From NCBI GenBank assembly GCA_050084515.1, contig CM114271.1:27962001-28026000 (forward strand): a stretch of DNA of 64,000 bases, in the 5' to 3' direction. Position numbers and translations under genes: made by a program. Under the pieces are notes generated by a model. That model worked only from the letters and a program-made list of their open reading frames with translations. It ran no database searches and was not told where the DNA came from. Source of the DNA: Blasia pusilla. Its lineage: Eukaryota. Below are positions 60 to 64,000 of this stretch, piece after piece. Each line of letters opens with the position of its first letter. The stretch's first letter is position 1.

Positions 60-640
60 GGGGCACCAAGTTGGTCCACCATAGACGCGGGCGATGGGCT
101 CTAGAACCTACACTCGTCACATCCAAGAACACTGCTGGGCCAATCCAGGCACGTACCTGATGAGCACTCATCACCACCCGTGACCTGGAGTCTCCTAAGA
201 TTGGCACGTTCTCCAGAATGTAGACTGGAGAACGAGACTAGTGCTCCTACAACTGCCATACAATCCTCAACATCTCACATAACAACCTAGATCGAGTGTC
301 AGCCAGCCCGCTGCCTCATCCAGCACTCGATTGGCCTTGTCATGGCCAACCGACAATGACCAAATCAATGGTCCCTACTCGCTCTAAGTCCTATGCCCCC
401 AGCAAGGAAATATCCCTTAGTAGGGAACTCTGGTGCCCCTGTACCGCGGACGTAAACAATAAGTCAGGAAAACGTAGGCCTTACTGCGCCACATGTCAAA
501 ATGAGATGCGCCTCGCAACATCATCACTCTCCACATAGAGGTACTGCTACACTTGCACTCTGCCTTCAAAACAACAGCTAACCCGATGCTAATCCCTCCA
601 AAGAGATCTAACACTCAAATATCCTCCTCCGGGATACACC
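60..640 (-). pseudogene. C5 cytosine DNA methyltransferase domain remnant in retroelement copy 1
   Basis: Minus-strand translation shows motif I LDLFGGISIG, motif IV IDLVIVGWP*QG (catalytic Cys codon now TGA), motif VI ILENVP and motif VIII RAHRPRLWWTNL. Frameshifted. Confidence 0.85.
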
Positions 641-2593: not shown

Positions 2594-4386
2594 CTAGGAG
2601 TCGCACCAACTCCTAAACTCTGCTATGAAATTGTGCCTACTGCACCTGAAAACCTACGCCGTCCTCCACCCCGGTCGTCCATCTCGTACGCCCAACTGGT
2701 AGGACCACTCACAATGTGTGGCGATGTGCTCACAAACTCCTCTACACCGTCCCCCTCATCTGACGATGACAAAGAAGGAGGTCAAGGTGGTCCCTCACGT
2801 GGAGACTCTTGGAACCTCACGCCACTCTGCGTAAAACCTCTAGAGCTACTCTCGGGTTCACCACCTCGCCTCTCAAAGTCCTGAACGGACGCCGTGATGA
2901 CCCTTGTGACCCTCTCATCCGATCACTCTCAACCTCTCGAGTAATCCCTCAATCACTCATCCCAAACATGCGGCACTCGACCAAGCTATCATCTCATCGA
3001 CAACCTACCCTCAACTCCGGACATCCCACACAGGTCTATGTCCCCTAAACCACATACATGAATGATGCTCTCAACATCCAACAACCCAAAATCCCAGAAT
3101 CTCTCACACGTGCAGGGTAAAGGCCCAGAATGGGTAACCTAAACACATGTCGATGTCGCTCCTCCGCAACTGCAAATCTCGACCCCAACTCGGTCGTGAA
3201 GACAACTTGTGCAATCATCAAGTCATACTCCTCTCGTATTGACGCTGCTCAACCTCCTCGATGTGCAATGCACGGAACTGGCGGCACGGAATGGCTACAA
3301 ACAGCATGGCACTCGGGAATGGGGTGCGGCACTTGGCGGCATACCCTCCTCAATCAACAATTCACACGCTCTTCTCCTTAGTGAAGGAGCGGTTCCACGA
3401 TCGAGACGGTGCGGTGCGGCCATGAGCGGCACGGCGCAGCAATCGGCGGCGCGTTGCGGCTACGGGTGTCACGGCACGGTACTTGATCATCGTTGAGCGG
3501 CTACCAATCACAACATAGCAGCATGAGATCAAAACTCAAAGACCATAACTGAAGGTCATCTGCCATCATTGGTTGATGACGAAACTGCGATGACGGTGGC
3601 GGCCAAAACAAAGTATGTGGTGGCGACGCAAGTCAGAGAATCAACAAACTTCGTGGAAGACCCTCCACTCCGTAATGGCAGAAATGGCAGAAATGGCAAC
3701 CAAAGGGTGGACAACGATGACGGTTGACCGTTGATGATGAAGGTGACGGTTGACCATTGACGATGATGTTCGACCATCGACGGTGACTATGACGGCGATG
3801 GCCTCCGCCGGCCTGGCGACTGGTTTAGGGTTTGAACAATTTAACCCTAAAAATTGCCTAACAATGGCAGTTTTGCAAGATTGATCATAACTTTTTGCTT
3901 GCAACTCCAAATTGTGCATTGTTTGTTGCACAACGTGCAGAGCTTCACGATCTACGATAACATCAAAAAATATTTAGAATCATACATTCCAATAAAACCT
4001 GACAAGGATTGTCGTAAATCCCAATGTCTCTTTCTTCTACACAAAACCTGTAAAAATAGAAATCAGCAAGCTACATGGTGCTCCCGAGAGCGCCGACATG
4101 GGGCAACCCGCCCCCATAATCAATCCCCATTAGAAATTGGGCACCGCTTCCGCGTGCCACTCTTCCATACAAAAAATTGGCAAATGCAAAGAACAATCAA
4201 ATCAGCCCTTGCTTCGGTAAGCAATCCCATGAGCCGTTAAACGAGAAACACGGTCCTCAACCTGAAAAAAAACGAGTGACCAACGGGCTCCCCCATGAAG
4301 CTCTGTCACTCTCTCATTCTCTCTTTGTAAAATAAGATCCAATTTCTCTCACAACACCATAGTTCTCACATGTGTGCACTCTTCCA

Positions 4387-5013
4387 TGTCGTGCGTAAAC
4401 ACATCGCTACACAACATACATCGTTGTCATCAAACACACACAATCCCATGCTAACTCATGGCATCCATATACAGAGGCGAGAAGTACCAAATATCTCCAA
4501 AATAATAAGATCCAATCTCTCTCACAACACCATAGTTCTCACATATGTCCACTCTCACATGTCTGTCTCAATGTCAAACCAAACCCACTCTCCTAATGAG
4601 AGGCTTGGGTTACACACACAAGGCAAGACCATAGCTCTGCCGCCTCATGCTAAGAGGTTCAACAAAGAGAGAATGAGCTCTCAAGCTCTCTCTCTTGGAG
4701 GTATACCCCCTTCCCTCTCCCAAGCCCTCTCAACGATAACATTTGCTCGTAGGTCATCTCCTTGGCTCTTGACCTGCTGTAGCGGGTCAAGGGCCACTTC
4801 CCAAAGTGGAAAGTCAACTATCCCCAATATGGAAACTTACCCCAAATAGTAAGTTTTTCTATATGGCTCCAAATAAGCCGAAACGAAGGGGAAACCTACT
4901 CTCTCAGCTTTCCTAGGGCCTCAACAAGTCATCCTCAACCTCTTGGGCCTGTCCTCCACTACTCGTGCAGACGCTCTGCTAGATCCTACCGATCTATCCT
5001 AACAGTCGTGACA
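4387..5013 (-). repeat. A+B terminal-repeat unit of the DNMT retroelement family (TGTCACG...CACGACA)
   Basis: The reverse complement aligns with A2 (7121-~7620) and B (~6990-7118, ~7620-7731). A second piece of the A 3' end follows at about 4331-4386. Confidence 0.8.
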
Positions 5014-7731
5014 AACATCATTACTGACCATTAGCCACTTAAGTGGTTGATGGAGTCCGACAAGCTTACAGGGAAGCTTGCGAGGTGGGCTCTTTTGTTG
5101 CAGGAGTATGACTTCCAAGTGGTTCATAGACCTGGGACGCTCAACCAGGATGCAGATGGTTTGAGTCGTAACCCATGGCCGAGTCAACGAGATGCGACTC
5201 GAGCTCGTTGACATGGTGAGAGTGATGAGGAGTTGGTGCTAGGATGGCATGCATCAGCCTAATTAGGCTTGTTGGCTAAGGAGAGCCAGATTGCGGAGAC
5301 TTCAATGGCCAGGTCTGATGGAGAGTCCTTAGATCTAGAGGTCGGTGAAGAGACGACAGGTGGCCGAGACATTCACGATGATGGATTGGTCTTGGAGTAC
5401 ATGCGTACTGGCAGCGTCGCAAGCATAGTAGGTGTTAGAGAGCGGGATCGGATCCTACAACGAGCCAGACAATTCCGGTGGGAGGATACACATGTGTTGC
5501 GAGTGTGGGAGGATGGTAGAGTGCGTGTAGTGCCTCATCCTTCGTAGAGAGCACGTTTGGTGCGTCATATCCACGAGGAGTTGAGTCATTTTGGAGTAAA
5601 GCGGACATATAGCTTGCTCCAGATTCAGTATTGGTGGCGAGGCATGCAGACTAACGTTCAGCACTTTGTTGCCAGATGCATGGTGTGTGATCGAGTCCGA
5701 GCATCGTTCAATGCTCCAACTCCACAGTTGCATCCACTTTTGATCATGGGTTTAGGTTATAGATGGAGTTTGGATTTTGCAAGACATTTGCCTTAAACGG
5801 AGCACCATAGTCGTTATGTGTTGGTGATGATCGAGCAGTTCTCGAAGTGGATAGAGTTGGTTGCATTGCTTGACAAAGCGAGTGAGGGAGTAGCATATGC
5901 CTTCGTAGATCGAGTGCTAAGTCATTACGGCCCACCAGTTGAGGTATTGACAAACTAGAGTACACAGTTCCGCGGGGAGTTTTAGGCACTGATCGACCAT
6001 CGCACTACTTCACGAGATTATCCTGAGGCGGATAGACTAGCGGAAGGGGTTGTGCATACAGTGAAGAGAGGACTACGCAAGTATGGCTTGCAGAGAGGTC
6101 ACCTAGGAGATTAGGACCTTCAGTCGCCGTGATTGGCGATGGGATACAGATTCAACATATATGCATCCTAAGCGTCTTTCTCACCGTACTTGTTGCTTTA
6201 TGGCCGTAAGCCAAATTTACGTGCGGCCATTCGTCGAGATACTGGTGAGGTGTTGAACCTTGATGACCCTGATGTATGGATGCGAGCATGTTCTGAGAGG
6301 GCTAAGTTATTTCGAAGAGTGATATCCATGGCATTTGAGAACTTTGCGATTGCACAACATCGAGATACGTTGAGCTATGCGACTATTCGAGGAGGTGGTT
6401 ATCAACCTACTATCCAGAGGTTTCATCAGAGAGACTATGTCTACTTGCAACAGACGGTACCAACGACGTTGGATGTGACTGCAAGGCGCATCATCTTGAG
6501 AATGCGTGAGGTTTTACCATCCGGTGTTCTCTTATTGGAGGGACGCGATGGTATGGTTTGGAAGGACCATGTGCGTAACTGTACGTCATGTCATCTCCCG
6601 AACATTGACGATACAGTTGATGCGAGCTTAGCAATAGTTCGTGCAAGCTTGCGGCGTATGTTGTGTGGTTCCGCCCGTGGTGCAACCACTATACTAGTCT
6701 GTGATAGATGTTCGAGAGGATGACATATGGCATATTTGACGCCACCTCTCACTAGGGTTCCTCAATGACGATGGATGTGTCCCAAATATATATAGAGTAG
6801 GTAGTTTAGATAGTAGGTAGTTCTACATTCCGAGTTGTGTCTATCACATGGATAACAAGAAGGCGACTAACGATGGGGCCACATGAACACTCGGCCTTCT
6901 TGGTCTTAGCGTCCAAGAGATGTATGTCATGGTAAATAGTTATAGATGGTTATCTGCACTTAGAGGGACCTAACCACCAACTAAGGGGACGATTGAGATA
7001 TTTTGGTACTTCTTGTCTCGTTGTTTGGATGTCATGAGTAAGCGTGGGATCCTGCATGTTTGTGTGTATGTTCGATAACAACGATGTATGTTGTGTAGCG
7101 ATATGTATCCGCACGACAGCTGTTATGTCTCCTAGGATATATCCGTGAGATCTAGTAAAGCGCCTTCTTTTGTCGCAGAGGATAGACTCAATAGGTCGAG
7201 GATGACCTGCTGAGACCTTGAGAAACATGAGAGAGCACGTTTCCCCTTCGTTTCGGGTCATTTGGAACCATATTGAAGAAGTTACTATTTTAGATAAATC
7301 CAATTTTAAATTTATGACCAACTTTCTATTTTTGGTAAATGATTCTCGATTTCTTACATCAGATCAAGAGCCAAGGAGGTGACTCGGGAGCATAGATTAC
7401 CATGGAGAGAGTTAGGGAGAAAGGAGAAGCATATTTCAGAGAGAGAGTTTGAGAGCTCATTCTCTCTTTGTTAAACCTCTTGACATGAGACAATGGAACT
7501 ATAATCTTACTTGCCATGAATGTGTGTAATCCAAGCCTCTCATTAAGAGAGTGGATTTGGTTTGTCATTAAAAGACACTTATGAAAAATATAGTGTTATG
7601 AAAGAGATTTGCTCTTACTTTATTGAAAATATTTCAATACTTCTTGTCTCGATATTTGGATATCATGAGTCTGCATACAATCATACGTGTTTGTGTATGT
7701 ATTCCATAACAGTGATTCTATGCGCACGACA
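5014..7731 (+). mobile_element. DNMT-family retrotransposon copy 2 (3' half: RNase H end, integrase, PHD, B1-A2-B2 repeats), degenerate
   Basis: TDH*PLKWLMESDKLTGKLARWALLLQEYDF; integrase HHCC (HEELSH...CMVC); PHD remnant LCGS...VCDRCSRG*H at about 6655-6790; junction CACGACA-GC-TGTTATG at 7112-7127; element ends CACGACA at 7731. Confidence 0.88.
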
Positions 7732-13300: not shown

Positions 13301-16300
13301 GACCAAGATCATCACAAATACTACACATCACAGCTGCACTTGTAGGGCAGGTCTACATAGGAACTATGTTACTGACCTATCCTTCCCTGCAAGGTGTTGA
13401 CCAAGGGCTTGCTGAGGTTCAATCCTTTGAAATGGTCCTGGATGTAGCCAGTGCTCCTGCTGTGCACGAATATTGCAAAACTGCTGCACGCGTTGTTGAA
13501 ACTCTTGTCTGTCCACTAGCAGTCCAAACTATCCACAAAGATTGATCATAATAGTAAAATTTCCCCCCTACACTGTAAGACCTTCAGAACAGAAATCTAA
13601 ATTCTCACTCACACTGGGAAGAAAAATAGAAACCCTGGTTTCTACCGAAAGAGAAGGTATTCACCAAGGCTCACAAAGCTAATAAACATCATTGGACGAA
13701 CTCGACATTTGAAAAGGGTACATAGAAACTCAGACCCTATACACCAGAGAGGTACAGAAACCTTCACATAATCTTACCACAAGCCGAAGTGCATTAGGAT
13801 CATCATCCCGATCAGCCAAAGCCAGGAGTATGATATCAAAAGGCAAGATATCTTGAGTCCACATGAGAATTGTAAGACCTGCACTTGCCCTAAGCAACAA
13901 ATCCTGGCCCAAGGATATGATGAATTCACCCTATCAGCCTCAGTGTTGACACCCCCTTCAATCAAGGAAATGCAAGGAACAAATAGAAATGTAACATTCA
14001 AGGGTTAGCTAATGAATATTTCCTTCAAATTTGACGTGATCAAGCAAGTTTCAGGAAGATTCGGTTCCATACAAGCAAGAGTAATCTGTATGACCCTTAC
14101 AAACCCTCCTGAAAGATGAACTTTCCGGTTATGGGCTTCAAATTCGGACAAAACGAGAGAACATACATGCAATAGATGACCATGCTGCAACTGCAGTTGA
14201 ATGTTGTGAAGCAGAACATCCACCATTATGTAAATATTTTGAGTTACTTCTTCTGGTGACAATTCCTTCATGAGTCGTCCCTGCCACATCCACAAAACAA
14301 CTCCATCAAATGTTCCCCAATAAAACTAACCAAGCTGACTGAGTAGACTGTAATGTTAATGGGACCTGATTGTTAATTGATGAGAAGGCCACAGGATATC
14401 ATCAGCAAATGTCCGGACAACAAATGCCAGAGGATCCACTAGCCTTTCTCCAACTGGTGCATGAAAGATATTTTCTTCAGGGCCAAAACCTAGGGTGGTC
14501 TTAAAAATCTGGGGCAATCAACAGATAGGGAGTAAGGTGAAGACCAACAAAAAAAGATCGGTGATTGGGAAACATCTCTCAAAAGATACGTAACATTTCA
14601 CAAGCACCTACAAAATATCAATGATCCTAATCTCCTATTTACTGTGAAAAAGATTGACCAGCAGAAGTATCTCCTTGTTCAAAGTCAGAACTATCATCAA
14701 CTAATCCATCCATGAATTCAGCTTGTATACTGTTGTAAAACATAGTAACTTGGAGTTTACTATAGTGAAAAGTAACTGATAGAATTACTATAGTAACTTA
14801 GTGTTTTACCACAGTAAATAGTAATTTCTTGTTACCATAGAGTTACCTCAGTAATTCTGAGAATTACTATGGGCGGCAGGCCCTAACCCTAAAAACCCTA
14901 AAACTTAGAAACTCATTCTCTTGGCTGTATATAACCCTCTGAGGGTGCCCTGCGAATTTACATTCTCTTACACCTTTCTGGACACAACTCTCTGAGATGA
15001 GGAGCTGATTGAGAAGCACTGAGTGTGCTTTGCTTACCTGAGTGGATTGTGCTTCTGACCTTAGTAGTTCAGTGTGCTAAGCACTGAGTGTGCTGCTGCT
15101 TACAGACTGAGAGGTCTGCTGACTTGAGGAGTTCAGTGAGTCTTGTGATACAAGGTGTATAGCAGTACTAACCTGAGTGGTTGCTATTGAGATGTCTACT
15201 GCTGCTAACCTGAGTGGTTGCTATTGCACTAAGTGTGCTTGAGAATGCAAGGTGATCTGGTGATGCAGGTTGTCTAGCTCTTTCCTCTACAATCTAACCT
15301 GAGTGGTTGCTATTGCACTAAGTGTGCTTGTAATAGCTAGGTTGTAGAGAAACTCTGATTCTAAAATATACAATCAGTAAATCAGTTTCTAACTCGTAAA
15401 ATGAGAGCCCTATCATGATGTGGCTCTCCTTGTTACCTATCAGATTCTAAGGAGGATTCTATGTAGTCATATCTTGCACTCACAACACAGATCCTCAGAC
15501 GTCACCATAAACCGATTTAGGTAAGATCCCATACGCACTATAGAGGGTCGTCAATTTTTCTATGTTCAAAATTTAAGTCTAGCGTTTTTTCGATAACGAC
15601 CTGATCATGTTTGAAAGTAGTTAGTAGGGATCGATGCGTTTTGTTACATTATCTAATGGTACAGTGTTTTGGACACAAAAATAAGGGTCGTTGCAATCTT
15701 TGTGGTGTCTATGGGATCCGGCTCTTAGAGTCCAATCTTTTGGTCCGGTGTTTTGAGGCTATTTCATCCGGCGGTCAATCAATTTCTGATCAGAAAGATC
15801 ATCCATAGTGGTTATAGTGATTTTTACGGTATGGAAGGTGTTGAAATTTGTTAATATCTAGTTTAGTCATGCCCTAAAAGTAGTTAGTCAAATACTAACT
15901 TAGTTGGATACTAATTTAGTTAGCTAGAGATAACTTAGTGTTCCTCTATCTTTTTAGGGTAACCTTGAATTAGGGCAATTCTCGAGTTAGGGCTAGCCAC
16001 CATCTGTTATTTAGGGTATGGATCTGTTCAAGAAGATCCAAGGGCCAGAAGGGCTCACCCTCATGTATATAATGTCTCTGTTTAGAGAGCAGAAGTCAAT
16101 TCTACAGCATGCACAGTTTTGGTAAGGACTCCTGTGTTAAACTATATGAGAGATGTAGACACAATGGTAATGATACAATGGTAAAGCTGCGACTAAGCTT
16201 AATGGAGAACTTCAAACCTGATGTTTATTCAAGCCCCAGATTATATACTAATCTGGATATTGGCTAGAGACAAGATAGTCTGAGTGGCAAAGTGACCAAG

Positions 16301-48600: not shown

Positions 48601-49558
48601 TGTTATTATGAAATAAGTGATGTAGAAAATCTTGACACAAGGAAAACTATTCATTAGAAGAAACGCTTGGTTTTATGACTAGGATACATGACTTATATGA
48701 GTCATATATCCCGATCAATGACTAGGAATAATTGGTTGCTTGTTAAAACACAATAGCCAAGTCATACATGCCAAATGACTAACATTACTATCTTAGTGAG
48801 TTTATATGAAGGAATGAATCATGTAGTCATTTCATCACAATTTCCATGTCACTAATATGATGCATACAAATGAATAATTAGCTTATGACATGGAAAAGGC
48901 GCTTCATCATATGCAAAGACACGTTCGCAAGATAAATTGCATGTCAACCTAATCAAATGACATGTCAACAGTTGACATGTACTAGAGGATACCTCGTGCC
49001 TATTCATCCTCGGGTTAAGCTAACCCGAGGTCGAGGCACGGTTGCCCAAGCTGTCGGGAAGGGGTTTCCATAAGGGTTTAGCATGGCGGACGGCGTAGGA
49101 GTGAGCCTATTTTTTGAAAGCCAAGGTAACTCGCAGGAAAACCGAGGTAAGGCAGAGGCAGTCGGGGCAGAGGGGATCCCCAGAGGCAGTCAAGGCAGGA
49201 TCCGCACCTAGATTGTGAGGGGGAGGGCCAACATCAGTAGGGAGGAGTCGAGGAGTTTGAGACATTGCAAGAAGGTACATAGGAGCAGGAAGGAGCTAGT
49301 GATTTTGTGAGGCCCAAGGTGAATAATTCTTCTGGTCCTGTGTTATTCATTTTTTGCTCGTTGTAGTGTCAAGTTCAAAATTTCCTCTTCTTTTGTTCCC
49401 TTCTTCAGCTCCTTTGCCATTTCTTTGTTTTAATTCTTTGTTGGGGACATTCAATGTCAATCAGGTCACTTTTGAACATTCGACGTAAACATGTTTGAAC
49501 ACCCTCAACATGTAGTTCAGATATCTCCTCCGCGACCGTTTTTTTCTAGTCATCTGAA

Positions 49559-50400
49559 ATGGAAAAAGAGGAGGCCACAATCCCTCTGGATAGGTTCAAC
49601 AATTTTCTTGAAGGGGAGAGAAACAAAGAGAATTTTCATTGTGCCATCAAGATTAGAAATTCAAGTGAGAGGACAACATCTCGGCACATTATCCGATATT
49701 TGTGTGTTTATGGATCAGATGACCTTCGGAACATGGTGGAAAAAGATCTCCCCAGCAATGTAGAAAAAGGGAAAAAAGAAAGGTCCAAACAGTAGACCTC
49801 TTGCTCAATCGCCATTACTTGGTACATCTATTTCTCGAGGATGTCAATGCCACTTTGCAAAGGTGATGTATGTAGAACAACCAAAATTATGTTTGATTCA
49901 TTGGATGCATCATGAACACACTGACAAGGATAATGAATTTTATCGTGGGATGTTGGATAAGAGTGCAATTGTTGCAAATCCTCATATTGCCTCACGTCTA
50001 TCTAATAAATACTATGAGTTTGTTGAACATCTATTGAGCTGGTGTTCAGCCTGCACATGTTCTAAATGAACATTATCGACATATCAAAGAGAGTTTTTCG
50101 GGAAGTACACTTGAGAAGGTCATTTGGTCAAGAAATATGAATCTCACCATGAAAGATATTTGTAACATCATACTACAATTGAAGTTAAATTCACATCATT
50201 ATAATCCATGTGATGCAACGATAGTAAGAATGTGGGTCCAACAACATCCTTGTTTGGCTTTGTTCTATCGAGAACAAAGGAAACCACAAGGTGTTCTATT
50301 TTGCTGAGTAGTTGCAACGCCATGGATGGTTGAGAAGCTTGGTACATTCAGCCAAGGAGGTGGAGTGAGAATGGAATCAACTTTTGGAACTAACCTTTAT
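49559..50400 (+). pseudogene. MULE/SWIM-type transposase remnant
   Basis: IPLDRFNNFLEGE, YLCVYGSDD, RGCQCHF, MWVQQHP and STFGTN resemble, from memory, plant MULE-derived SWIM zinc-finger proteins. Heavily disrupted. Confidence 0.6.
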
Positions 50401-51059
50401 GAGGCAATACATTACATATATCCACTAATTTGGTGTCCAGATATGGACACCAAAGGCAGTAAATATTCTAAAATAAAATTATTGAAGTATGGTTTTGATC
50501 TTGTGTGGTGTAAGAATCCATAAGTTTGCAATTTGAACTAAATATCTGAATTTTCTTTTGTGTTTGAAGTTCCAAATTGTTTACACTTTTATGCTATGAT
50601 GAATTCCAAAATGAAATTCCATGCGTTTGGGCTTTGATGGAAAGACACACATAAGTTGATATTGCAGAGGTCTTAAGTGCCATCAAATTGTAAGTGAATA
50701 ATTATATAAGGGAAGTACTTAAATCTTGTGAGTTATGGAGGTCGCCCTCTTTCATAGTGGATAATTCCAAAGAGGTATAGACTACAATAGAGTATATGTT
50801 ATTTGATAAATTACCCCATCCTATGTGAATTTGTCTAGATGACTTCTCAGATGAGAAGAGTTTCACATGAAATCCTAACCTGACATTGCTTGCTCTAAAG
50901 CTTTTTATATGCTCATTGAACTCATGGCCATGTAAGATCAACAAAGGCATATTGCCAAGCCTTCCTCTAAAAAAAAATACTCTTGAATGGCTCAGTATTG
51001 GCTCGTTGCCAACAATGATTCGCCTCGGGCTCCACCCCTGCCAATGCCGTGTAGACTCC

Positions 51060-51950
51060 ATTCCACCTCGCAGCTCCACCTCCATCCTCTGAAAAATCGA
51101 GCTTGCTCACTCAAACTTCCTCCCTCCCTCCCTCCCTTCGAGATCAGAGTTGGCTCCATGCTCGCTCAGAGCGCGAGTTGAAGCAAGCTCGCCTCGCTCT
51201 GCCCGCCCTTTGCTGCTCGCCTCGCTCAGAGCGCAATCCCGAGCTTAAACAACTCGAGCTCGTTTGAGCTTGAGCTTGAGCTCTCTCTCCTCCCTTGGAG
51301 CCTCTCTCCGCCCCCCGCCGCTCACCTCGTTGAGAGCGTGAGCTCTCTCTCCTCCCTTAGAGCCTCTCTTTCCGTCCTCTGCCTTGCTCCACCCGCTCTC
51401 CTCTACTCGCCTCCCTCATAGCAAAAGCGAGAGCGCAAGCTCGAGATCATTTGAGCTCGAGCTCTCTCTCCTCCCTCAGAGCCTCTCTCTGCCCTCCCCC
51501 TCGCATTGCCCGCCCTCCGTTGCTTGCCTCACTCAGAGAGCAAGCTCGAGCTCTCTCTCCTCCCTTGCCTTCCTCCGCCCTCCGCCTCACCTCAAGCTTG
51601 ACCTCCTTGCCTCGCCTTGAGCTCGACCTCCTTGCCTTGCCCGATCAAACCTTCTCTTCTCTCCTCTCTCGCCACTTTGCTTCGAATCCTATTGAGCTCC
51701 TACACGTTGCTCGCTTGATCCCTCCCTCGATCCCGATCAAACCCTCTCTCCTCTCCTCTTGCTTGACAATAGGTTTGATTCTGATCGAACCCTCTCTCCT
51801 CTCCTCTCGCTTGACAATGGGTTTGATGCCAATCAAACCCTCTCTCCTCTCCTCTCCTCTCGCTCGATTCCAACTGCGTTCCTCCCCTCTCTCCGCCGCT
51901 CACGCTTCGCCTCCCCTTCGGAGCTCTTGCTCGGCCCTGCCTCTCTGGCT
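51060..51950. repeat. pyrimidine-rich degenerate repeats inside the MULE
   Basis: Recurrent GAGCTCTCTCTCCTCCC and a ~48-bp tandem unit at about 51735-51865. Confidence 0.75.
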
Positions 51951-52032
51951 GCTCCTCCCGCCGGTAACAAAATTCTATTGCCACCCGAGCATGCTCAGGT
52001 AGCCCCGCCGCGACCTCAGGTTAGCTTAACCC

Positions 52033-52399
52033 TGTCATGACCATACGGATTATGTCGTAGAGTATAGTGTGCTAGTAGAGGCCATACCTTATGTAGGGCC
52101 GCAGTGTTTAGGTAGAGATGCGATTTCATACATAGGGTTGGGGGTTACTCGATTGAGGGAGAGTTTTCCAGTAGGGCCCGCTCTTAGGTTGGAGGATATA
52201 AGGTGGAGTGCACTCAAAGAACAGTCAGTTCTTTGAGTTGAGCCTGTTGCGTTGGGAGTTAGCCTTGGTAGTGAGTAGAGCTCTTGGCTATGGTGTTTCC
52301 CCAAGCTTTGACCTAGATTCTCCCATCGTGGAGTGGGTTTGGCTCGATTGTATGTGATTCTATATGTGTTTTATGACAGTAGGTTTTTCACGAATTTCA
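52033..52399 (+). repeat. repeat A1
   Basis: Direct repeat of 62239-62589, with roughly ten differences including a ~17-bp indel. Confidence 0.95.
52197..52238 (+). promoter_or_regulatory. candidate TATA box and transcription start of the retroelement
   Basis: TATAA at 52197-52201. AGTTCTTTGAGT starts 30 nt downstream and is complementary to 52399-52410. Confidence 0.55.
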
Positions 52400-53810
52400 C
52401 TCAAAGAACTAGAGTCGATCGATTCTAGCTTCGATTGTGGATCAGTAGGATCTGGTTAGGGTTGATTGTGTACTCAGCCGTGGATGTTCGTGGCTTGTGG
52501 CCTATGTTGGAGGTGTGAATCTCGTGGGTGGTTGGTTGGGAAAGAAGCGCCTTGCTAAGAGCTTTCCAACTCGCTTTAGATCGCTGGATTTCATCAAGGA
52601 ATTTGGAAGTTATCAAGGATTGAAGATTCTGGTTCGTGTTCGACGGTTTTCTGATGTGGAGAGCTTGCAGTGCGGAAGCTCTGTTGAATTTCATCCAGAT
52701 CAGGTGAGAGTTTCCTGTTGCTACTTGTATTGTGATCTCGTATGAAGCTATCTGCTCGAGTGTGTGGAGTGTTGCGGATTTCTGCGTGCATGAAACTGGG
52801 CGGAAGCGCTGTCGGATTTGCAATTCTGGAGGTGTATGGACAACCAGTTTGTCTGATTTTTAGCTCGGAGTACAAAGCTTGGTTGTAGCTGATTTTTTGT
52901 GGAGAGATAGCTATGGTGGACAGCGGATTAGAGAGGCTGGTTGGTTGGTGACTCGTTCATTGTTGGAGATGCCTATCCCGTTGGGGGCGCCCTGGTTGGG
53001 CCTCTCCCCACAGCAAAGCATGGCGAACGGGGCATGTCTCGAGCATTTCTCGGCATTTCGAGGCTTCGAGGCAACTCGTGGTAGCTCGGGGCGAGTGGGC
53101 GTGAGAGGCAGAGTAAGGAGCAAGGAGCAAGCAAGCAAGCTTGCTTGCTTGGGCGTGAGGCAGTTTTTGCAAGATTTGTGATTTGAGTGTTGCATAACTG
53201 GTCACCCATCTTTGGGCTATTATGCCTGGAGGACGCTTAACTGCTGAGTTCTTAACTATGTCAAGGTACACACTGGTGTAGCTCATTTGGTGCTCTTTGG
53301 AGATGTGTTAGGCGCTTTATGCATCTTAGGTTTTTTATTGATGTACCTCTAGCGCATAGTACGGTGTAGCCTCTCCATGCAAGTGATATTTTCAGGTGTT
53401 GCGAGTCCGACTAGCACGTCATCGACCCGCGGCGGAGTAGCTATTGCGTTAGAATTGTGTGGTGGGTTCTGTGGATTCAGGGGGCGCCACATTTGGTGGA
53501 TTGTGTTACCTTGATTTCCATTTGCGAGTGGAGGGTTGTCGTTGGACTTCCTGTGTTTGAATCCCCTCCATCGTTGCTTCTTGCTTGCGCGCCCATTGTT
53601 AGGGTTGACGCTGATTTCCAGAGTAGTGTTACTCCTGTGTGCTATCGGTAGTGAGGCTATAGTGATGACCAGCAGACCGTGGGAGGCTTTTTGTGGTGAT
53701 GACAGGTTGGGTTGCCTACACCCATAGCTAGTAGAGCTAGAATAGTATAGCGACATCGACGTCACTTGGTTACTTAGTGGTGGTAATTTGGTGGTGGTGC
53801 GGCATCGGCG

Positions 53811-55300
53811 TTGGTCATCACGGAGCTGTCGGGTGGTCTGGTTGGGGACCGTGGTGCAGACAGTGGTGGTTTCACACGGAGTGGATTTAGGTATCGGCTA
53901 TCTTTTCCACTTTCGACGGTTGATGAAGAGGAGGACGAGGGTGTTCCAAACACCGAGTCTTCTACGTTTTTATCGAGTGTTGCAGCTCCATTGATTTGGG
54001 ACATGGACGGGATATATGGGTCCATGAAGGGCCCACGACGATACTCGAGTGCAGTGGGCACCATTGAGTTGGAGGACTTCATGCAGGAGTTTGATACGTG
54101 GTGTGATATGCAGATGTTGCGGAACGCCACTTTGTTTACACCCTTCTTGGTTTGGAAGGGGTTGTTTCAGCACTTGGAGGGACCACCCATGGATGATAAC
54201 CATGAGTTAAGGAAGGACCATGTTGCTGAGATTAAGGCATGGAGACAATATTGGTCTCCAGGCTATGTGTCTATCACCCATGGTGGTATTGGTAGTAGTG
54301 CTCCTACTATGCCATCCAGCCCGACGTTGAGTGGTACGAGTACGAGCCGGAGTGGGGGTACCAGTGGAGGTACCAGTGGGGGTACTAGTGGAGGTACTAG
54401 TGCCCCACCATCGTTTAGCCCGGTTGCACAGTTCTTCAAGAGGTTGAAGAAGAACTATCAAGGAGTGAAGACAGAGAAGTTGAGGAGTCTTCAAGAATTT
54501 GAGCGAAAGATTGGTGAGAGTCTTCGTGAGGCATACACTCGTATGCGACGCTTAATTTCAGTTACCAGGTGTGGCGAGGCTCAGCGATCCAGTTTTGGTA
54601 TGGGATCTTGGGGAGAGAGTTGCGCCAGTAGGTACGTGATGCTACTCTTATGAGTGATGATTCACCCACATTGACCCATGTGTTTGCTCTATCTGAGAGG
54701 ATTGAGCTTAACATGGTGAAGGAGAGAGTGGTGACATCCGCATTCAGTAGGGATACAACTACTACTTCTCGTGTTCAGCAGCCCACCTCACAGTCTCGTA
54801 GTAGTGGTGGTGGTAGTAGTAGTGGGAGTCGTGGTCGTAGAGGGACACTTGCGCAGAGACCATTGCCTTTATTTGCTGCCCCGTAGCAAGGACAGTCATG
54901 TTGGACATGTGGAGATGATCATGTTAGGAATTTTTGTCCCCAAGAGGATGGGAGACGGACTTTGGAGGATGGGCCTCAGTCGGCACCAACTCAGTGTGAT
55001 CATTGAGGGAGACCAGGTCATCCTCGAGAGCGTTGCTTTGATCTTCATCCAGAGTTGAGATCAAGCCGCGGTCGTGGTGGAGTAGCTCCGAGAGGCCGAG
55101 GTGGTAGAGGTGGACTAGTGGTTGGAGCGCCTACGGTGGCCACCCCTACCACTACGACAGAGTCAGCTATGGCTGCCAGGATTGAGCAGTTGGAGCAGAA
55201 GTTGGCTACTATGGCTGGTATCCAACATAGATCAGGTTCGGGAGGAGGGGCTTCCACCTCTTATGGAGGGGATTATCTCTCTTATATGGCGAAAGAGTGC
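53811..55300 (+). pseudogene. gag with two zinc-knuckle remnants
   Basis: Retrotransposon gag-like GESLREAYTRMRRL; CWTCGDDHVRNFC and CDH*GRPGHPRERC; GGTS repeats. Confidence 0.75.
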
Positions 55301-55773
55301 AAAGACGTTGAGTTGAGGCATCGATTTGCGATTCTGAGAGGAGCCACTCGGCGTCGAGCCACGTGGTGATCTTGTGGAGTTGGACCCATAGAGGGGTGAG
55401 GTGGGGAGGCGGCTAGGCTTCCTGGTCATTCTTGTTGTCTCGAGGTGCTTAGGACTCCATCCATGGTTCCTATGCAGCCTATTGAGCCGACAGTGGGGAT
55501 CGAGGCATCTACATCGCGTGTAGTAGACACGGATGCAACATCTAGTCTTGATTGCGGATGGCAACCAGTGTTGGGATCCCCATTGTTTTAAACCCACGGA
55601 GGCGATGGCTTTAGGAGTTGACTTAGCTCATGTATTTGACTCTCGGACCACGTTGTGTGAACGTGGGGTGTTATTCTTGCACGTCTTTGAGGTGGATGAG
55701 GGTGTTGCGGTGGAGCAACCCTCTATGTCGTGTAGCATTGAGTACCAGTGCTACTTAGCGAGCGGCGGCGAAG

Positions 55774-56240
55774 ATGGATGCATTACCACCGGCCACCATT
55801 GATCGTGAGAGGCTTACACCTGGTGTATGTATGTTGGACAACTGGAGTGGGATATTCCGATTGGTGAGTCCTACAGGACAGGTGTATAGACCAGATAGAG
55901 TCTTGTTAGACTCTAGTGCCCAACCTTTGATGTTGGGAAAGGCGGCATATATTGGTTTGGGTATTCGGAGGTCAGAGCTTGAGCCTTGCCCATTCCAGAT
56001 TCAAACATCGCTTGGAGGAGCCAATGATAGGTCTCAATTCATTACACGGGAGAAGTTTTATGAACAGTTGAGACCAGATCATGCGATTGATAGCTCCCGG
56101 TTGGGAGTATCTGCGGTAGTCACATCAGCCGAGTCGTATGATGTACTAGTTGGAGGAGCAGTATTGTACCCGATGGGTTTTCAGATGGATTCTTTGGTGA
56201 GACACATCTTATAGACCTGGTTGGCAGTCCGGGGATGGAC
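55774..56240 (+). pseudogene. retropepsin-like aspartic protease
   Basis: VLLDSSAQ (DSG-like) and YDVLVGGAVL (xxLG motif). Confidence 0.75.
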
Positions 56241-56619
56241 GTATGAGCCATGTTCCTGTGAGATTTATTTATGGGGCTCGACGAGGAGGGTCTTCCCCAA
56301 CAGTGTTAGCATCTGTGGCTGGTTTTAGTGGAGTAGTCACTTGGCCAGGAGACTTTTTGGAGGGTAATGTTTCTGCTATGGATTCTCCTATGCATGAGGA
56401 GGTAGAGGAGGTCCCTATTTTTGCAGCACTGGCATCCTCATCGTTGGATGTGCCACTTTGGAGTTCAGGCGGTGCACTACGGCAGAGGCGTCGCCTAGTG
56501 CAGAGGCTTGGTGTGAGGTTATACCTCACGAGGAAGAGGAGGCCTCACGGCGGACTCCTACTTCTGGTCCAGTTGGGTTATCCCCTTTGGATACTACAAC
56601 CATTGTATGGCAGTATCCG

Positions 56620-57560
56620 CCGGAGGGCATTTGTGTGTTAGATCTCTTTGGTGGAATTAGCACTGGTTTGGCTGCAGTGTTGCAGGCCGGTATTCTTGTG
56701 CGGAGATTCGTGTATGTGGAGCGAGATGAGACGGCCCAGAGAGTCTCATCCTGACATATTGGTCAGTTAATGGGGAGATATCCTGAGTTGTTGCCGCCAT
56801 CAGCTATTCGTGGGTACCAGCGTGCTTTGCCGTCACACATTTCATTGTTGGGGGCGCAGGACCTTGAGAGGGTTGGCCCTGTGGATTTGGTGATTGCTAG
56901 ATGGCCATGTTAGGGTCATACACGTGCTGCTCGTGGTGAGGGATTACACGACCCTAGATCTCGATTGTTTTGGGAGATGTTACGGGTATTACGATATCTT
57001 CAGGTTCATCAGGCACGTGCTCTAGCTTACATTCTGGAGAATGTTCCATTGTTGGGTGACACTCTGACCCGGATGATGGCGAGTGTTCATGAGGTGCGGT
57101 CTTGGATCGGACCAGCGGTGTTGTTGGATGCTGCGCAAGTTGGCTCGCGTGCACATCGTCCACGCTTGTGGTGGACAAACTTGTTGCCTAGGGAGGTTCT
57201 ACGTCGAGCATATGATGCAGTGCAGCGGGATCCTTGCCTTACAGTGGAAAGTATCTTGGACACTGGGCGACTTTCTCAGGTGGTGAGGGTTATTGATCGA
57301 TCACCCATGGCAGTGGTGAACCGTGTGGGCCAACCTAGGATGGCACTACCCACATTTGTGAGTTTTCCCTCATCACATGCATACAGGGACGGTGGTCATG
57401 GGCTTGTATGGGATTCTCATATGCGACAGTTGGTGAAGCCTAACGCTGATGAGAGAGAGCGTGCGATGGGATTTGCTACTGGTGTGACAGCGGTTTCTTC
57501 CATTTGTGAGGCTTCACGACGTCATGTGTTGGGTCAGGCCATGGACTTGAATTGTTTGAC
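56620..57560 (+). pseudogene. C5 cytosine DNA methyltransferase domain (DNMT3/DRM-like motifs), in frame with RT, with two premature stops
   Basis: Motif I VLDLFGGISTG; II YVERD; IV VDLVIARWPC*G; V DPRSRLF; VI ILENV; VIII RAHRPRLWWTNL; IX ERERAMGF; X RRHVLGQAM. Confidence 0.9.
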
Positions 57561-57869
57561 TTGGATTTTGAGTCTTGGTATGGCCGAGCAACGTCAACTC
57601 TGGACTATGTATGTGGGTCTTCCACCCCTTGTAATGAGCTCGATGGCTACAGGGACGGTAGGGGCATCGGCTGGGGGCGAGGAGAGTAGTATTTTGCATC
57701 CTTGGAGTAAATGGGATGTAATGGTTGGGCATGTGGAGTTTGTTGCTCATGCTGGTAGAGGAATTATTTGCTCAGATGATGGTGTAGCTAAGGGTGTACC
57801 ATCTTGTGAGGGGGTTATGAGTGACCTATGGCATAAATCCTCTCCCTCTAGTGTGCCAGTGGAGGAGAC

Positions 57870-59250
57870 TTGGGAGCCATTACTTGGGCCCAAGTTTACG
57901 GGAGGTGAGAAACGACGCTTGACACAGTTCCTACATGCTTATAGGAGTTGTTTTTCCTTTAGCATAAAGGAGTTGGGTTCTCTGGTGGGACCCGGTATAC
58001 GGATTGATTTGGCTAGTGATACGCCAATCTTCCGTCGTCCCTACCGATATTGTGACATGGAGAGGGACCTAATTCAGAGTAGGACGTTGGACCTTTTGGA
58101 GGCTGGATTAGTGGAGTTGTCGCGTGGAGAGTATGCATCAGCCACTGTGATGCCTGCTAAAAAGGATATGCATGGCAACTACACGGATAGGCGGATGTGT
58201 GGAGATTACCGTCCTATCAATCAGCAAACCAAGGCCGATAGGTATGCCATGCCTACACCTGAGGAGATCTTTGATGTGGTGGGACAGGCAAAGATTTTCT
58301 GTGCTTTGGATCTTCGGGCAGGATACCATCAATTGCCGATTCGGGAGAGTGATAAGGCCAAGACATCATTTTGGGGTGTCAACTCTCATGGCAAGGATTG
58401 TTTGTACCAGTGGAAATTCTTACCCTTTGGGTTGAAGAATGCATCTGCCGAGTTTTAGAGAATGATGGACAGGATCCTAGTAGGGTTGGATTTTTTTCGG
58501 TGTTACATCGATGATATCTTGGTGTTCAGTAACACGGTGGAGGAGCATCAGATACATTTGCAGATGGTGTTTGAGCGGTTGAAAGCTCATGGTCTACGTT
58601 TGCATCCAAGAAAGTGTAAGTTCTTCCATGAGGATGTTGAGTACTTGGGTCATGTGATCTATCCAGGTGGTTTGGGAGTTCAGCAAGCAAAGGTGGAGGC
58701 TATTGCACTTATTCCGCGTCCGGTAGATGTGAGTAGAGTTCAAGCATTCATGGGATTGGCAAACTACTATCGGAGGTATGTGAAGAGATTTAGTGCTATG
58801 GCAAAGCCTTTGAACCAATTGCTGAAATCAGATCAAGAGTGGCATTGGGGAAATGATCAGGAGAGAGCTTTTGTGGAGCTTAAGGCCAAGTTGGTGGCAA
58901 CGCCTATCTTGAGGAGACCTATCAGAGGGCGCCCATTTCAGTTACACACTGATTGGAGTAGGTTGGGACTTGGAGCGGTGTTGACACAACATGATGATGA
59001 GCACATGGAGTTTGTGGTGGTTTATGCAAGTTGTTCGAATAATGCAGCGGAGTCGCGCTATAGTTCATATGAGGGAGAGTGCTTCGCAGTAGTGTGGGCT
59101 GTGGCACACTTTAGGTGTTACTTGTTTGGCATATAGTTTACCCTTGTTACTGATCACCAGCCGCTTAAGTGGTTGATGAAGTCTGACAAGCTTACAGGGA
59201 AGCTTGCACGATGGGCTCTTATCTTACAGGAGTATGACTTCCAAGTGGTA
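57870..59250 (+). pseudogene. Ty3/gypsy-type reverse transcriptase and RNase H
   Basis: RMCGDYRPIN, LDLRAGYHQ, LPFGLKNA, YIDD, KCKF...YLGH, LHTDWS, YSSYEGE, TDHQPL, LARWAL; stops at 58456 and 59134. Confidence 0.95.
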
Positions 59251-59699
59251 CATAGACCTGGAGTTGCCAACCTTGATGCTGATGGGTTGAGTAGGAACCC
59301 ATGTACTAGCCAAGAAGATACAACATGGGCTAGATGGCATGGCGAGGTTGTTGAGGAGATGGTGCCAGGTTGGCATGCATCCGCCTTTTTATGTTGGTTA
59401 GGGGTGGACTATAGTATGGAGGACCACATGATATCTTACTCTAGTCAGAGGGTAGATGGCCAGCCTTCAGATCCTAAGGTGGGAGATGGTGGTACGGATC
59501 AACGTGATATTCATGATGATGCATTAGTGTTGGAGTTCCTACGGACCAGTAGGGTACTAGGCATAGTGAGTGCCAAGGAGCAAGACCGTGTTCTTCAACG
59601 TGCTAAGAGGTATCAATTGGAGGGAACACATATTCTCCGTGTGTGGGAGGATGGTAGAGTACGAGTAGTGCCGCATTTGGCGAGAGAGAGCGCACAGCG

Positions 59700-60919
59700 A
59701 CATGCCCATGAGGAGTTGGGACATTTTGGGGTAAAGCGTACGTATAGCTTACTCCTTGGTCAGTATTGGTGGCGTGGCATGCATCGAGGTGCAGCGATTG
59801 GTGTCACATTGTATGGTTTGTGACCGGGTGAGGGCATCATTCAATGCCCCTACACCACGATTATACCCTTGCCTATTATGGGGTTGGAGTTCTTTGTTGG
59901 AGTGTGGACTTTTGGGACCGTTACCGTTGGATGCGACATCATCGATATGTGTTGGTGATGGTGGAGCACTTCTCCATGTGGATTGAGTTGGTGGCATTAC
60001 GACAAGGCAAGTGAGGAACGGCGTATGCGTTTCTTGATAGAGTGCTTAGTCATTTTGGTGCACCGGTTGAAGTCTTTGACCGACTAGGTACAAAGTTTGT
60101 GGTGAGTTTGGTCTTGTGTGACAAGGCATTGATTGATCATCGGACCACGTCTCGAGATCATCCGAGGCGGATGGTTTGGTGAGCCTGTGGTTGAGATGGT
60201 GAAGAGGGCATTGCGCAAGTATGGCCTCTGAAGGACATCTTGGAGACCAGGATATTCGGTTGCAATGGTTAGCCATAGGGTATAGGTTCGATCGCCAAGC
60301 ATCCTTGGCTTCCTTCTCACCTTATTTTTACGTTATACGGCCGAGATCCAGACTTGCCAGCAGCAATTCGTCGGGAGTCTAGTGAGGTGGTGAACCTTGA
60401 TGACCCAGAGATGTGGATGAGAGGGCAGAGCTCTTTCGGAGAGTTAAGCCAACAGCCTTTGAGAATCTTGCCATTGCTCAACATAGAGATACGTTGTGGT
60501 ACGCAACCATTCGGGGTGGAGGTTATCGACCATCGATTCGTAGGTTCCATGTGGGAGACTATGTCTATTTGGAGCAGATTGCACCGAAAACCTTGGATGT
60601 GACGGCAGGCCGCACTATTTTACGATTGCGCGAGGTGTTAGCTTCTGGAGTTCTCATGTTGGAGGGTTGTGATGGAGTTGTTTGGAAGGACCATGTACGT
60701 AATTGTGTGCCATGTCATCTTCCAAATGTGGATGGTACTGTTGACCCAAGCTTAGCCATGATACGTGCTAGCTTGAGGTGCATATTGTGTGGGTCTGCTG
60801 GTAACGCAACCCGTATGTTGGTGTGTGATTGGTGTTCTAGGGGTTGGCACATGATGTGTTTGACTCCACGTATGGATGTTGTTCCTACTGGAAGGTGGGT
60901 TTGTCCTCGATGTACTTAG
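59700..60919 (+). pseudogene. integrase with C-terminal PHD finger (60779-60913)
   Basis: HEELGH...YWW...CMVC; frameshifted core; FHVGDYVYL module; CILC...VCDWCSRGWHMMCLTP...WVCPRC (C4HC3). Confidence 0.9.
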
Positions 60920-61055
60920 GAGAGGTAGATGACTTGATCTTTGCATGATATGGATTACAGATGTGCGACTAACGATGGGGCAACCTAGCACGCGGCCTTC
61001 TGATTCGTGCACCCAAGAAGGTATATAGCATGTAGTAGATGTATAGGGCTACCTG

Positions 61056-62088
61056 TGTCGTGCGCCTACTCTCCTTGAACGTTAATCTTGTTTGTTGCGG
61101 AAGCGTGCGTTCAGTAGGTCACGCTCTCAACGCTGATCTGCATCCAAACACGCACTTCGGTTAGTCGGGTCTTGGATCAATCAGCGGGATTACTTTCCGA
61201 GTTCTCGTCTCGGACTCTCTCTTTAAGCTCAACCTTCCTAGTTTCGCGGTTTCCAACACGGGCAAGTCTCGAAAGACTTGGGACAGACTTTCTGGTCGGT
61301 TCAGGAATCTGAAACGGCATTTCGCGCCTAGCGGTTCCAACTATCCGATGAACATCCAATGAGTTCCTCACCAAGACTCGCACGAAGTGAATCTCGGGTT
61401 GGAATCCAAGTGTGGCGTACAAAGTCCACTCCCTTGGATCAGGTTTGGGTTTCGGGTTTCCGCGCCAAACTCCCGTTTCATCCCGTGCCTCTGAAACGCC
61501 GTTTGGCGCCCAAAGTGGGGTTTCGTTTCCCGAGACATCTCAGAGAAGGTACTCCCCTTACTAGTACTTCTGGGGATCTCCGGGGGCCCCCTACATTTAG
61601 GGAAAGACACCCGGGCCTCTCCAATTGGCCCTCAACCCGATTGCTCTCTGAATTGTTTTCGGCCAATATCTCAGCCTATACTTATGCGTTTGCTAAGATC
61701 TTTGGTGCGTTGGAAGCGTCTTGAGATCAGCTTTCCAACGCGCTCTTACTTGTCCCAAACGCATCTTGGAGCTCAACGTTATGGTCCTAAACACAGTCAG
61801 ATTCTCCCAAACGCTAGTCGTGTTCCAAACTGGTTCTCACCTCTTTGGCAACCAACCTCCAAGACTCAACTCATCTCAAGTCTGGGCTCGCGTTTGGTCT
61901 AGGTTTCCTGGTCGCGACCACTAACGCATGAAACGCACAACTCTGTTCCGCGTTTCATCTCTTAGACTTTTCCAAGAGACTCTTCCAAACGCCTCTCCAA
62001 AGCGCAAACCTCGCGGCATGAGTTCCTTTGAGTTCTGATGTTTCGCTTGGCGCGTATTTGGTGTTGTTTGGTTATGAGGGTCGCGACA
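61056..62088. mobile_element. solo LTR (1033 bp) nested in the 3' UTR of copy 3
   Basis: Ends TGTCG...CGACA; 5-bp TSD ACCTG (61051-61055 / 62089-62093); absent at the matching position of copy 2 (~6955). Confidence 0.85.
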
Positions 62089-62129
62089 ACCTGGGAGTTA
62101 GAGGGACGTTACTTCCAGTTAGGGGGGCG

Positions 62130-62696
62130 AGTTGTGGTACACTTGTGTTTGTGGATGCTCTCGTCTATGTTATGTATGTATGTGAGTATGGTATGTCAGC
62201 GATGTATGTTGTATGACGATATGGATTCGCACGACAGCTGTCATGACCATACGGATTATGTCGTAGAGTATAGTGTGCTAGTAGAGGCCATACCTTATAT
62301 AGGGCCGCAGTGTTTAGGTAGAGATGTGATTTCATACATAGGGTTGGGGGTTACTCAGTTGAGGGAGAGTTTTCCAGTAGGGCCCGCTCTTAGGTTGGAG
62401 GATATAAGGTGGAGCAATTCTTTGAGTTGAGCCTGTTGCGTTGGGAATTAGCCTTGGTAGTGAGTAGAGCTCTTGGCTATGGTGTTTCCCGCAAGCTTTG
62501 ACCTAGATTCTCCCATCGTGGAGTGGGTTTGGCTCGATTGTATGTGATTCTATACGTGTTTTATGACAGTAGGTCTTTCACGGATTTCAAGTTGTGGTAC
62601 ACTTGTGTTTGTGGATGCTCTTGTCTTTGTTATGTATGTATGTGAGTATGGTATGTCAGCGATGTATGTTGTATGACGATGTGGATTCGCACGACA
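62130..62696 (+). repeat. B1-GC-A2-B2 terminal repeat block
   Basis: B1 (62130-62236) and B2 (62590-62696) are 107 bp with 3 mismatches. A purine tract AGGGGGG lies just before B1. Confidence 0.95.
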
Positions 62697-64000
62697 ACCC
62701 GAGGATGAATAGGCGCAAGGAGAGGATAAAATACCAACTCATTGTTTATAGACAACTACCCTGGTCATATAATTACGACAACAATTAGCATAGATTGTCT
62801 AATATCCAATGATGTGTTAAAAATGTATAAATCATGTAGCACTCAATCATAAGTGACTATTATTTTCATGCAATGATTGATAATAAATAATCAGGTTGTA
62901 TGATAATGATTACAATTCATTCATGTAGTTGTTGCATTACAACTTTGCATATCTAAATGAGTGAAAATTTTATGACTATGAAAGGCATATTGGGTTGTCA
63001 TGTTATGACTAGGAATGTCTTACAAAGTTGTCACATTATGAATATACAAGTTATAGCATTATGTATGCGAATGATTGAATTAGTTTTCTTTGGCAAAGAA
63101 TGATTAGAGTAGTAATTTTATAATCACTAATGAATTGAGTTCTTAATGAATGTTAGTCCTCATGTAATAACTTGAAGGTATTTGACTCTTATGGTTATAT
63201 TGTAGAACTCATCTTGTCATTGTGGACTACACCCGGAGTCATTTTAGTAGGACTAGAGTTACTTCATGATGCATTTAGTGTGGTTTTTTGCATGTATTAT
63301 CAGCTCAAAATGGTGGATGACTATATAATAAAGAATTGTCTTCCACAAATAAAAACCTTCATTAAAAAATCCCAATAGAACTTGCTTGATATAAATGAAT
63401 TAAGTAATGTAAACATGTTGTAATTATTGGAACTCATAACAAATACAATTACATTTGAGTTTAAGAAGCTATAGAGCCAAAAATTTAATTGAAAAAAATC
63501 AGATTATGTAAGATAAAACTTGTGATAAGCCATAACAAAATTCAAAATTGGACCATATATCTTTGATAATTAAAGATCTAATGCAACACCTTCCTCGTAT
63601 GCATTTTAGGCTAAAGCATGCTTGTCCCCAATGCATCCGCAAAAGTCAATTTTAGTACTTTTTCCTCTATGGTTCACAATCCATAACATCTATCAAATCT
63701 ACTTGCACGATGCCTATGCGCATGATGGCACGAAAACAGGCTTGTCTGTCCATGGGAAAAATATGTCCATAGATATGCCCAACGAGTCCCCTACACATGG
63801 TTTTTTTGTATCCTAGTGGCCCAGGAGAATGGATCGGAGCTCAAATGAAGGGAGGTGACCAATGATTGAATGGGTGTATAGGCTATGAGCTCCTATTTGG
63901 TCTGCACCTAGCGTGCAAGGCCCACTCTAAGCCCACATGTTATGGGCCCTATGCGGGCCAAGTGGGCTCGGTGCAGGCCTCTACGCTTGCACCGAGCCCA

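Follow-up and report, generated by a model that had tools for sequence, protein, structure and literature searches.

The genome of Blasia pusilla holds a Ty3/gypsy retrotransposon that belongs to a streptophyte lineage, encodes a DNMT3-like methylase and a C-terminal PHD finger and carries split direct repeats, with A at the 5' end and B1-A2-B2 at the 3' end. It is a new bryophyte member of the kind known from Klebsormidium as KnitGypsy-Dnmt3. The A...B-A-B layout is the norm in the lineage and not a local rearrangement, and it apparently arises because a DDE integrase cuts inside the repeat, not at its ends. The stretch of DNA analysed, here called the window, comprises 64,000 nt (CM114271.1, 27,962,001-28,026,000, forward strand), and coordinates are window positions unless another locus is named.

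Copy 1 (52033-62696, plus strand) has the layout A1...B1-A2-B2, as the first-pass annotation had proposed and as self-comparison of the window, blastn and global alignment all confirm. A1 (52033-52399), the sole repeat of the 5' end, matches A2 (62239-62589) in three blocks of 95-98% identity (blastn E 1e-157), and their global alignment has 342 matches, 8 mismatches and one gap, in which A2 lacks 18 nt present in A1. B1 (62130-62236) and B2 (62590-62696) are 97% identical (blastn E 5e-46; 104 matches, 3 mismatches). Within A1 lie a TATA-like box, GGATATAAGG (52195-52204), and a putative RNA start, AGTTCTTTGAG (52227-52237). A predicted self-priming primer-binding site, ACTCAAAGAACT (52399-52410), adjoins the A1 end and is complementary to 52227-52238, and a polypurine tract, TTAGGGGGGCG (62117-62129), stands immediately 5' of B1. 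B1 and A2 meet at GACA-GC-TGTC (62232-62243), a 10-bp palindrome whose arms are the same sequences as the integrated ends.

The boundaries of copy 1 can be read from its insertion site. The element begins TGTCATG and ends CACGACA (CGCACGACA, the end of B2), and the flanks read ...TTAACCC before it and ACCCGAGG after it, giving a 4-bp duplication, ACCC. The insertion lies in a host inverted repeat, whose second arm (read as the reverse complement of 49051-48990) provides a paralogous empty site, ...GTTAGCTTAACCCGAGGATGAATAGG. Because this empty arm carries a single ACCC, the boundaries and the duplication are exact, and the 5' end of copy 1 therefore never had a B. The TG...CA ends, the ACCC duplication and the rebuilt empty site of the first-pass annotation all stand. 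The host element itself (49012-52032) has 40-nt terminal inverted repeats that are 80% complementary and CT-rich repeat families of 48-55 nt at 51270-51872, and RNA reads also cover 51860.

Two further copies lie in the window. Copy 2 (5014-7731, plus strand), about 70% identical to copy 1, is 5'-truncated and runs from RNase H to the PHD finger and then into B1 (6998-7118), A2 (7121-7628) and B2 (7629-7731), so that the B1-A2-B2 arrangement noted there is confirmed at 6998-7731. Its 5' part is interrupted at about 5013 by copy 3 (1-5012, minus strand), which runs past the window edge. The 5' end of copy 3 has A (5012-4500), B (4491-4387), the last ~56 nt of A again (4386-4331) and then a primer-binding site. 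A GACA microhomology marks the point where the repeated ~56 nt are joined, and the arrangement as a whole (region 5012-4310, minus strand) departs from the A-only 5' ends found elsewhere.

The layout recurs well beyond this site. A metagenome scan gave 599 pattern matches, of which 296 were confirmed; the best 80 loci of the 296 were analysed, with A and B mapped in all 80 and self-comparison on the 38 longer ones. Together with the window, these best 80 loci contain 15 distinct B-A-B 3' ends and 12 distinct single-B 3' ends followed by unrelated flank. Complete A...B-A-B elements are L017 (= L018), L022 (= L023), L048, L055 (= L056), L074, L079 and window copy 1. B-A-B also forms the 3' end of L011, L029, L044, L059, L066, L080, window copy 2 and L060, in which B2 is reduced to its last ~30 nt, and in L002 it is interrupted by the contig end. 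A single B closes L004, L006, L012, L027, L036, L042, L046, L051, L061, L062, L071 and L019 (= L043). Among the metagenome loci and copy 1, all 22 of 22 5' ends start TGTCATG straight after the flank and 0 of 22 have B ahead of A. The tabulated 3' ends thus do not reduce to a few rearranged loci, as the first-pass annotation had allowed they might.

Target duplications accompany both forms. The duplication is perfect in five of the seven complete long forms (window, ACCC; L017/18, CATA; L022, AAGG; L048, CCAA; L074, ATCT) and matches at 3/4 bases in L079; none is seen at the flanks of L055. The four complete short forms have perfect duplications in two cases and 3/4 matching bases in two. The single-B forms could derive from one-repeat circles, internal processing of linear cDNA or later recombination between B1 and B2. 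A solo A~B with a 4-bp duplication, ACCA, is nested just 5' of B1 in L074 (13825-14282, minus strand), and in L048 a 15-nt tandem duplication of the B2 terminal sequence (14629-14643) lies ahead of the CCAA duplication.

The coding order of the element is Gag-PR-DNMT3-like methylase-RT-RNase H-DDE integrase-PHD. The window copy is decayed, with Pfam matches to RVT_1, RT_RNaseH_2, Integrase_H2C2 and, weakly, rve. The gag, protease and N-terminal methylase region of copy 1 (53787-56754, plus strand) is broken over several frames and has no Pfam match; it is assigned by position relative to L028 and by tblastn to copy 3. A single frame with two in-frame stops (56914-59823, plus strand) then encodes the C-terminal portion of a C5 DNA methylase, followed by RT, RNase H and the zinc-binding domain of the integrase. 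A frameshifted integrase core with the weak rve match comes next (59832-60919, plus strand), with the C-terminal PHD finger at 60404-60916. Homologues identify the N-terminal part of ORF 56914-58455 as a C5 cytosine methylase (PF00145); those named are from the liverworts Calypogeia, Marchantia and Riccia and also from Sphagnum. The cytosine methyltransferase, the PHD finger and minus-strand copy 3 are additions to the first-pass annotation.

A near-intact relative, L028, was the sole locus with ORFs >1000 aa in a search for intact relatives. It encodes Gag with CCHC knuckles, protease and a methylase with PCQ and ENV motifs; after one in-frame stop come RT (YIDD), RNase H, integrase with H2C2 and the D, D, E residues, and a PHD finger. 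RT, RNase H and integrase (rve, H2C2) all score above the Pfam cut-offs, and the best matches among solved structures are Ty3 Gag-Pol (E 4e-98) and, for the methylase, DNMT3A/3B. The lone stop (5083-5085 of L028), between methylase and RT in an otherwise open frame of 2417 codons, may be a read-through stop or a mutation. Because the L028 contig is collapsed across the repeats, its ends are uninformative. No Phage_integrase match was obtained in 30 window ORFs (both strands) or in the L028 polyprotein, so the Pfam searches agree with the earlier description of an integrase-encoding element that lacks a tyrosine recombinase.

These features place the element among known systems. The domain order PR-RT-RNase H-integrase with rve and H2C2, the TG..CA ends and a target duplication within the 4-6 bp range are those of Ty3/gypsy elements; two identical LTRs at the ends are not found, integrated copies being A...B-A-B or A...B. 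Split direct repeats A1...B1-A2-B2 are shared with PAT, Ngaro and Viper as described in the consulted part of PMC4157794, whereas those elements encode a tyrosine recombinase and the present one, which ends in TG..CA and makes 4-bp duplications, encodes a DDE integrase with an H2C2 zinc domain. The DIRS order, to which PAT and Ngaro belong, is thus matched in its repeats and not in its recombinase. Troyka, which the first-pass annotation had singled out for comparison, is likewise gypsy-like in Pol with unusual termini, but it does not fit in termini, duplications or hosts. In the portion of PMC12440569 consulted its termini are CG..CG, its duplications 3 bp and its LTRs ordinary, and it is recorded only from animals, and an identity with Troyka was rejected on the 22/22 TGTCATG 5' ends and the 4-bp duplications.

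The closest relative by description is KnitGypsy-Dnmt3 of Klebsormidium nitens, a Gypsy Pol with a DNMT3-type methylase inside and DIRS-like repeats in the order A-coding-B-A-B (de Mendoza et al. 2018, PMC5890265, Fig. 4c legend), so that the novelty implied for this layout on a Gypsy element is not supported. The two share a DNMT3-type methylase within Gypsy Pol, split repeats and streptophyte hosts, a likeness drawn from the published description; the present host differs in being a bryophyte. The methylase assignment on our side comes from PF00145 in the homologues and L028, the PCQ and ENV motifs and the DNMT3A/3B structures. No match named Klebsormidium appeared among the named hits of the protein searches. 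The main text of PMC5890265, as consulted, gives no duplications, termini, primer sites, mechanism or PHD finger for KnitGypsy-Dnmt3, and the literature searched yielded no later paper using that name and no other earlier description of such a layout. The lineage is absent from the consulted part of a plant LTR survey (PMC6317226), which has no mention of PHD, methyltransferase or Marchantia. The mechanistic anatomy described below (polypurine tract at B1, co-varying primer site, 2-nt B/A spacer, variable A~B joint and near-equal divergence) was not found in print; subscription journals, Repbase Reports and supplements, including those of PMC5890265 and PMC6317226, may hold more.

The positions of the replication signals are conserved. 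A G-rich polypurine tract lies immediately 5' of B1 in 17/17 B-A-B loci and immediately 5' of the single B in 10 of 11 short forms, the exception, L042, having an internal deletion there. No purine tract precedes A2 in the B-A-B loci compared, where the sequence is ..CGCACGACAGC. At or near the A1 end (offset -5 to +4), 8-17 nt are complementary to a site within A about 26-30 nt 3' of the TATA-like box. A clean pair of this kind occurs in 12 of the 20 5' ends tested and also in L028 and copy 3; 8/20 have no clean pair beside A. The latter comprise L004, L009 and L074, with no match in their 5' ends, and five with a displaced match or another site in A (among L027, L072, L017, L040, L054 and L063). 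Four different sequence pairs retain complementarity, which amounts to co-variation in four families: group 1 (CTCAAAGAACT versus AGTTCTTTGAG, 17 nt in L022), group 2 (AATTCTAGAAAAACT versus AGTTTTTCTAGAATT), L028 (ACTTGACAAGAATGTC) and window copy 3 (ACAAAGAGAGAATGAG). In 2000 shuffles the observed pairing length was reached 4, 0, 0 and 0 times, the 4 belonging to the window copy 1 site.

In Tf1, reverse transcription is self-primed: the 5' end of the RNA pairs with a site directly downstream of the 5' repeat. Judged by its complementarity, the site described here is a putative Tf1-type self-priming arrangement. Self-priming is also predicted for the Tcn1 plant elements, in which the RNA 5' end is complementary to a site just after the 5' repeat (PMC6317226, part consulted). 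Tf1/sushi and Tcn1 thus resemble the present element in predicted complementarity beside the 5' repeat and differ in having ordinary paired LTRs and a chromodomain, where permuted repeats, a methylase and a PHD finger are found here. A copy of the primer-site sequence also lies just 5' of the putative RNA start, forming an inverted repeat with it (52208-52240, L021, L036 and 8826-8853 of L028), and A2 of copy 1 lacks 18 nt of that upstream copy.

The two junctions at the 3' end behave differently. At B1/A2, a 2-nt spacer (GC, AC, GT, AT or TC) separates inverted GACA-like and TGTC-like arms in 17/17 loci, with point changes in some arms, e.g. in L074 and L080. The A2~B2 joint varies in close relatives (CA-AG-, CA-G- and CA-A-TTGTGG), the A end in group 2 is AA, AAT or AATT, and sequence is missing in L079 (5 nt of B) and L060 (about 150 nt of B2). 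The joint has the look of a fusion of the two cDNA ends with slight trimming. A2/B2 is bridged by contigs from a separate DNA study (Logan), which are shorter than the element so that none spans all of copy 1, and these contigs have one letter absent at 62589 in 1396/3303 depth units. Substitution divergence of B1/B2 is similar to that of A1/A2 in 7/7 long forms (2.8% versus 2.3% in the window), and because the two are alike, both pairs are apparently renewed in one cycle.

Raw stranded RNA reads bearing the same species label run in sense along the whole element. Depth is 48-55 over 62188-62558 and 3.4-3.8 over 62559-62900, with 17 and 5 at 62589; since it drops about tenfold past A2, most RNA ends in A2 and lacks B2. 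The candidate begin and end places at 62400 and 62448 rest on 9 and 5 molecules. Some reads join 62696 to 52033 with GT between (3 and 9 reads). This joint might hint at circles but is ambiguous, because B1/A2 of other copies can give the same reads. Two other joints occur only in RNA, one at 59467-60448 that leaves out 980 nt and carries a 10-nt filler (16 and 31 reads) and one at 54088-60528 that leaves out 6439 nt (6 and 6 reads); they suggest deleted or spliced transcripts without the integrase core or most of Pol.

The directly observed anatomy, duplications, co-varying primer site and variable joint can be accounted for if the repeat used in reverse transcription is B-A. Plus-strand synthesis would begin at the start of B, primed by the polypurine tract, and minus-strand synthesis at the end of A, where the RNA 5' end, pairing just past A, would act as a Tf1-like self-primer. 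Because of these two positions, the cDNA expected is B-A-internal-B-A, and the integrase end sequences, TGTC...GACA, would lie within the repeat at the B/A boundary. On balance it is somewhat probable that such cDNA, once its ends are joined, is opened by integrase at a B/A site to yield A...B-A-B. We infer that the ends would be joined (A~B), whether in the manner of a two-LTR circle or by an end-to-end template switch, that integrase would open one palindromic B/A site, and that the product, A-internal-B-A~B, would be inserted with a 4-bp duplication. The integrated form would then be a circular permutation of the cDNA, opened at B/A. B2 would be remade from B1 in every cycle, because it is absent from most RNA and as young as the A pair. 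The D, D, E residues of L028 and its lack of a recombinase support a DDE integrase in this role.

Other observations count against joined ends. Known retroviral integrases normally act on linear ends. If a two-LTR circle were opened at random at either B/A, the permutation A~B-A-internal-B should equal the long form in frequency, and it is found at 0/22 5' ends (metagenome and copy 1), which counts against a simple circle model; window copy 3 alone resembles A~B-A...B, with a deletion. No circular or end-joined cDNA was seen in the read data, and B1/B2 recombination would account for the 12 single-B forms just as well as joined ends. The 8/20 5' ends that lack a clean primer pair likewise weigh against the scheme. 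Retroviral integrases are reported to cut palindromic junctions (PMC1180852, PMC1905944, parts consulted), and the likeness to two-LTR circles is that a DDE integrase cuts a palindromic junction where two ends abut within the molecule. The retroviral junction differs in consisting of joined LTR ends on a side path, whereas here the site would sit within the repeat and integration would have to take this route. That this lineage has a DDE integrase that obligatorily uses joined-end (circular) cDNA, opening a palindromic site inside the LTR, is offered as a tentative possibility.

Of the alternatives to joined-end cDNA, the one that fares best is that reverse transcription alone yields linear A...B-A-B cDNA, through a second plus-strand primer at the B/A boundary and an extra template switch that adds the right-end B, and that integrase uses ordinary linear ends. 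An integrase acting on linear ends would leave just such TG..CA termini and 4-bp duplications, and differences of 0-2 nt at A~B also fit polymerase template switching. However, the sequence 5' of A2 is not purine-rich and the canonical tract lies 5' of B1, the RNA has no primer site after B, and the large joint deletions of L060 and L079 fit end joining better, so this route is unlikely.

A DIRS/PAT-like route is more doubtful still. RNA would run from A1 into B2, the internal B1-A2 would splint a circular cDNA, and the circle would then be inserted. The A...B-A-B geometry is that of PAT, Ngaro and Viper (PMC4157794, part consulted), and the depths of 17 and 5 at A2/B2 include reads that span the joint. 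Yet the window ORFs and L028 have no tyrosine recombinase, 4-bp duplications indicate a DDE enzyme, and the scheme would leave both the primer site conserved just past A1 and the purine tract ahead of B1 without a role. An RNA-inherited B2 also predicts greater divergence for B1/B2 than for A1/A2, which is not observed, and RNA depth falls about tenfold after A2; we consider this route improbable. It is very improbable, and already contradicted, that the element is a conventional one with a true LTR A-B or B-A of which only rearranged or misassembled copies are seen: copy 3 does have A-B at its 5' end, but the 15 distinct B-A-B 3' ends and 22/22 5' ends starting with A come from separate assemblies, the duplications adjoin the A start and the B end, a paralogous empty site exists and contigs of the separate DNA study bridge A2/B2. 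An LTR of the form A-B with a truncated 5' copy was ruled out by the duplications and by where the purine tract and primer site lie.

The layout has a practical consequence for annotation. Standard LTR finders pair A1 with A2 and therefore overlook both the real 3' end and the target duplication, so the lineage, which by named hits includes liverworts and Sphagnum and is present in many metagenome contigs, is likely mis-annotated. The anatomy also makes it possible to test whether a DDE integrase can use an attachment site within the repeat, and it gives new life, through a naturally occurring element, to the long-standing proposal that joined LTR ends can serve as the substrate for integration. 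Such a site could explain the repeated origin of split direct repeats. If the joined-end reading is true, split direct repeats would be the geometric result of an internal attachment site, whatever the enzyme, and the PAT/Ngaro layout would be accounted for as well. It would further link three independent cases of split repeats with a methyltransferase, namely DIRS/PAT (putative methyltransferase domain), SymbioDIRS-Dnmt3 and Gypsy-Dnmt3.

Copy 1 also contains a nested 1036-bp element (61053-62088, minus strand) with termini TGTCGCGACC...CGCACGACA and a duplication, (C)AGGT. It is missing from most genomic copies and transcripts and, its termini apart, has no similarity to A, B or any locus compared. 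Possibly it is a non-autonomous element that exploits the same integrase ends. Antisense RNA reads lie within it, over 61075-61445.
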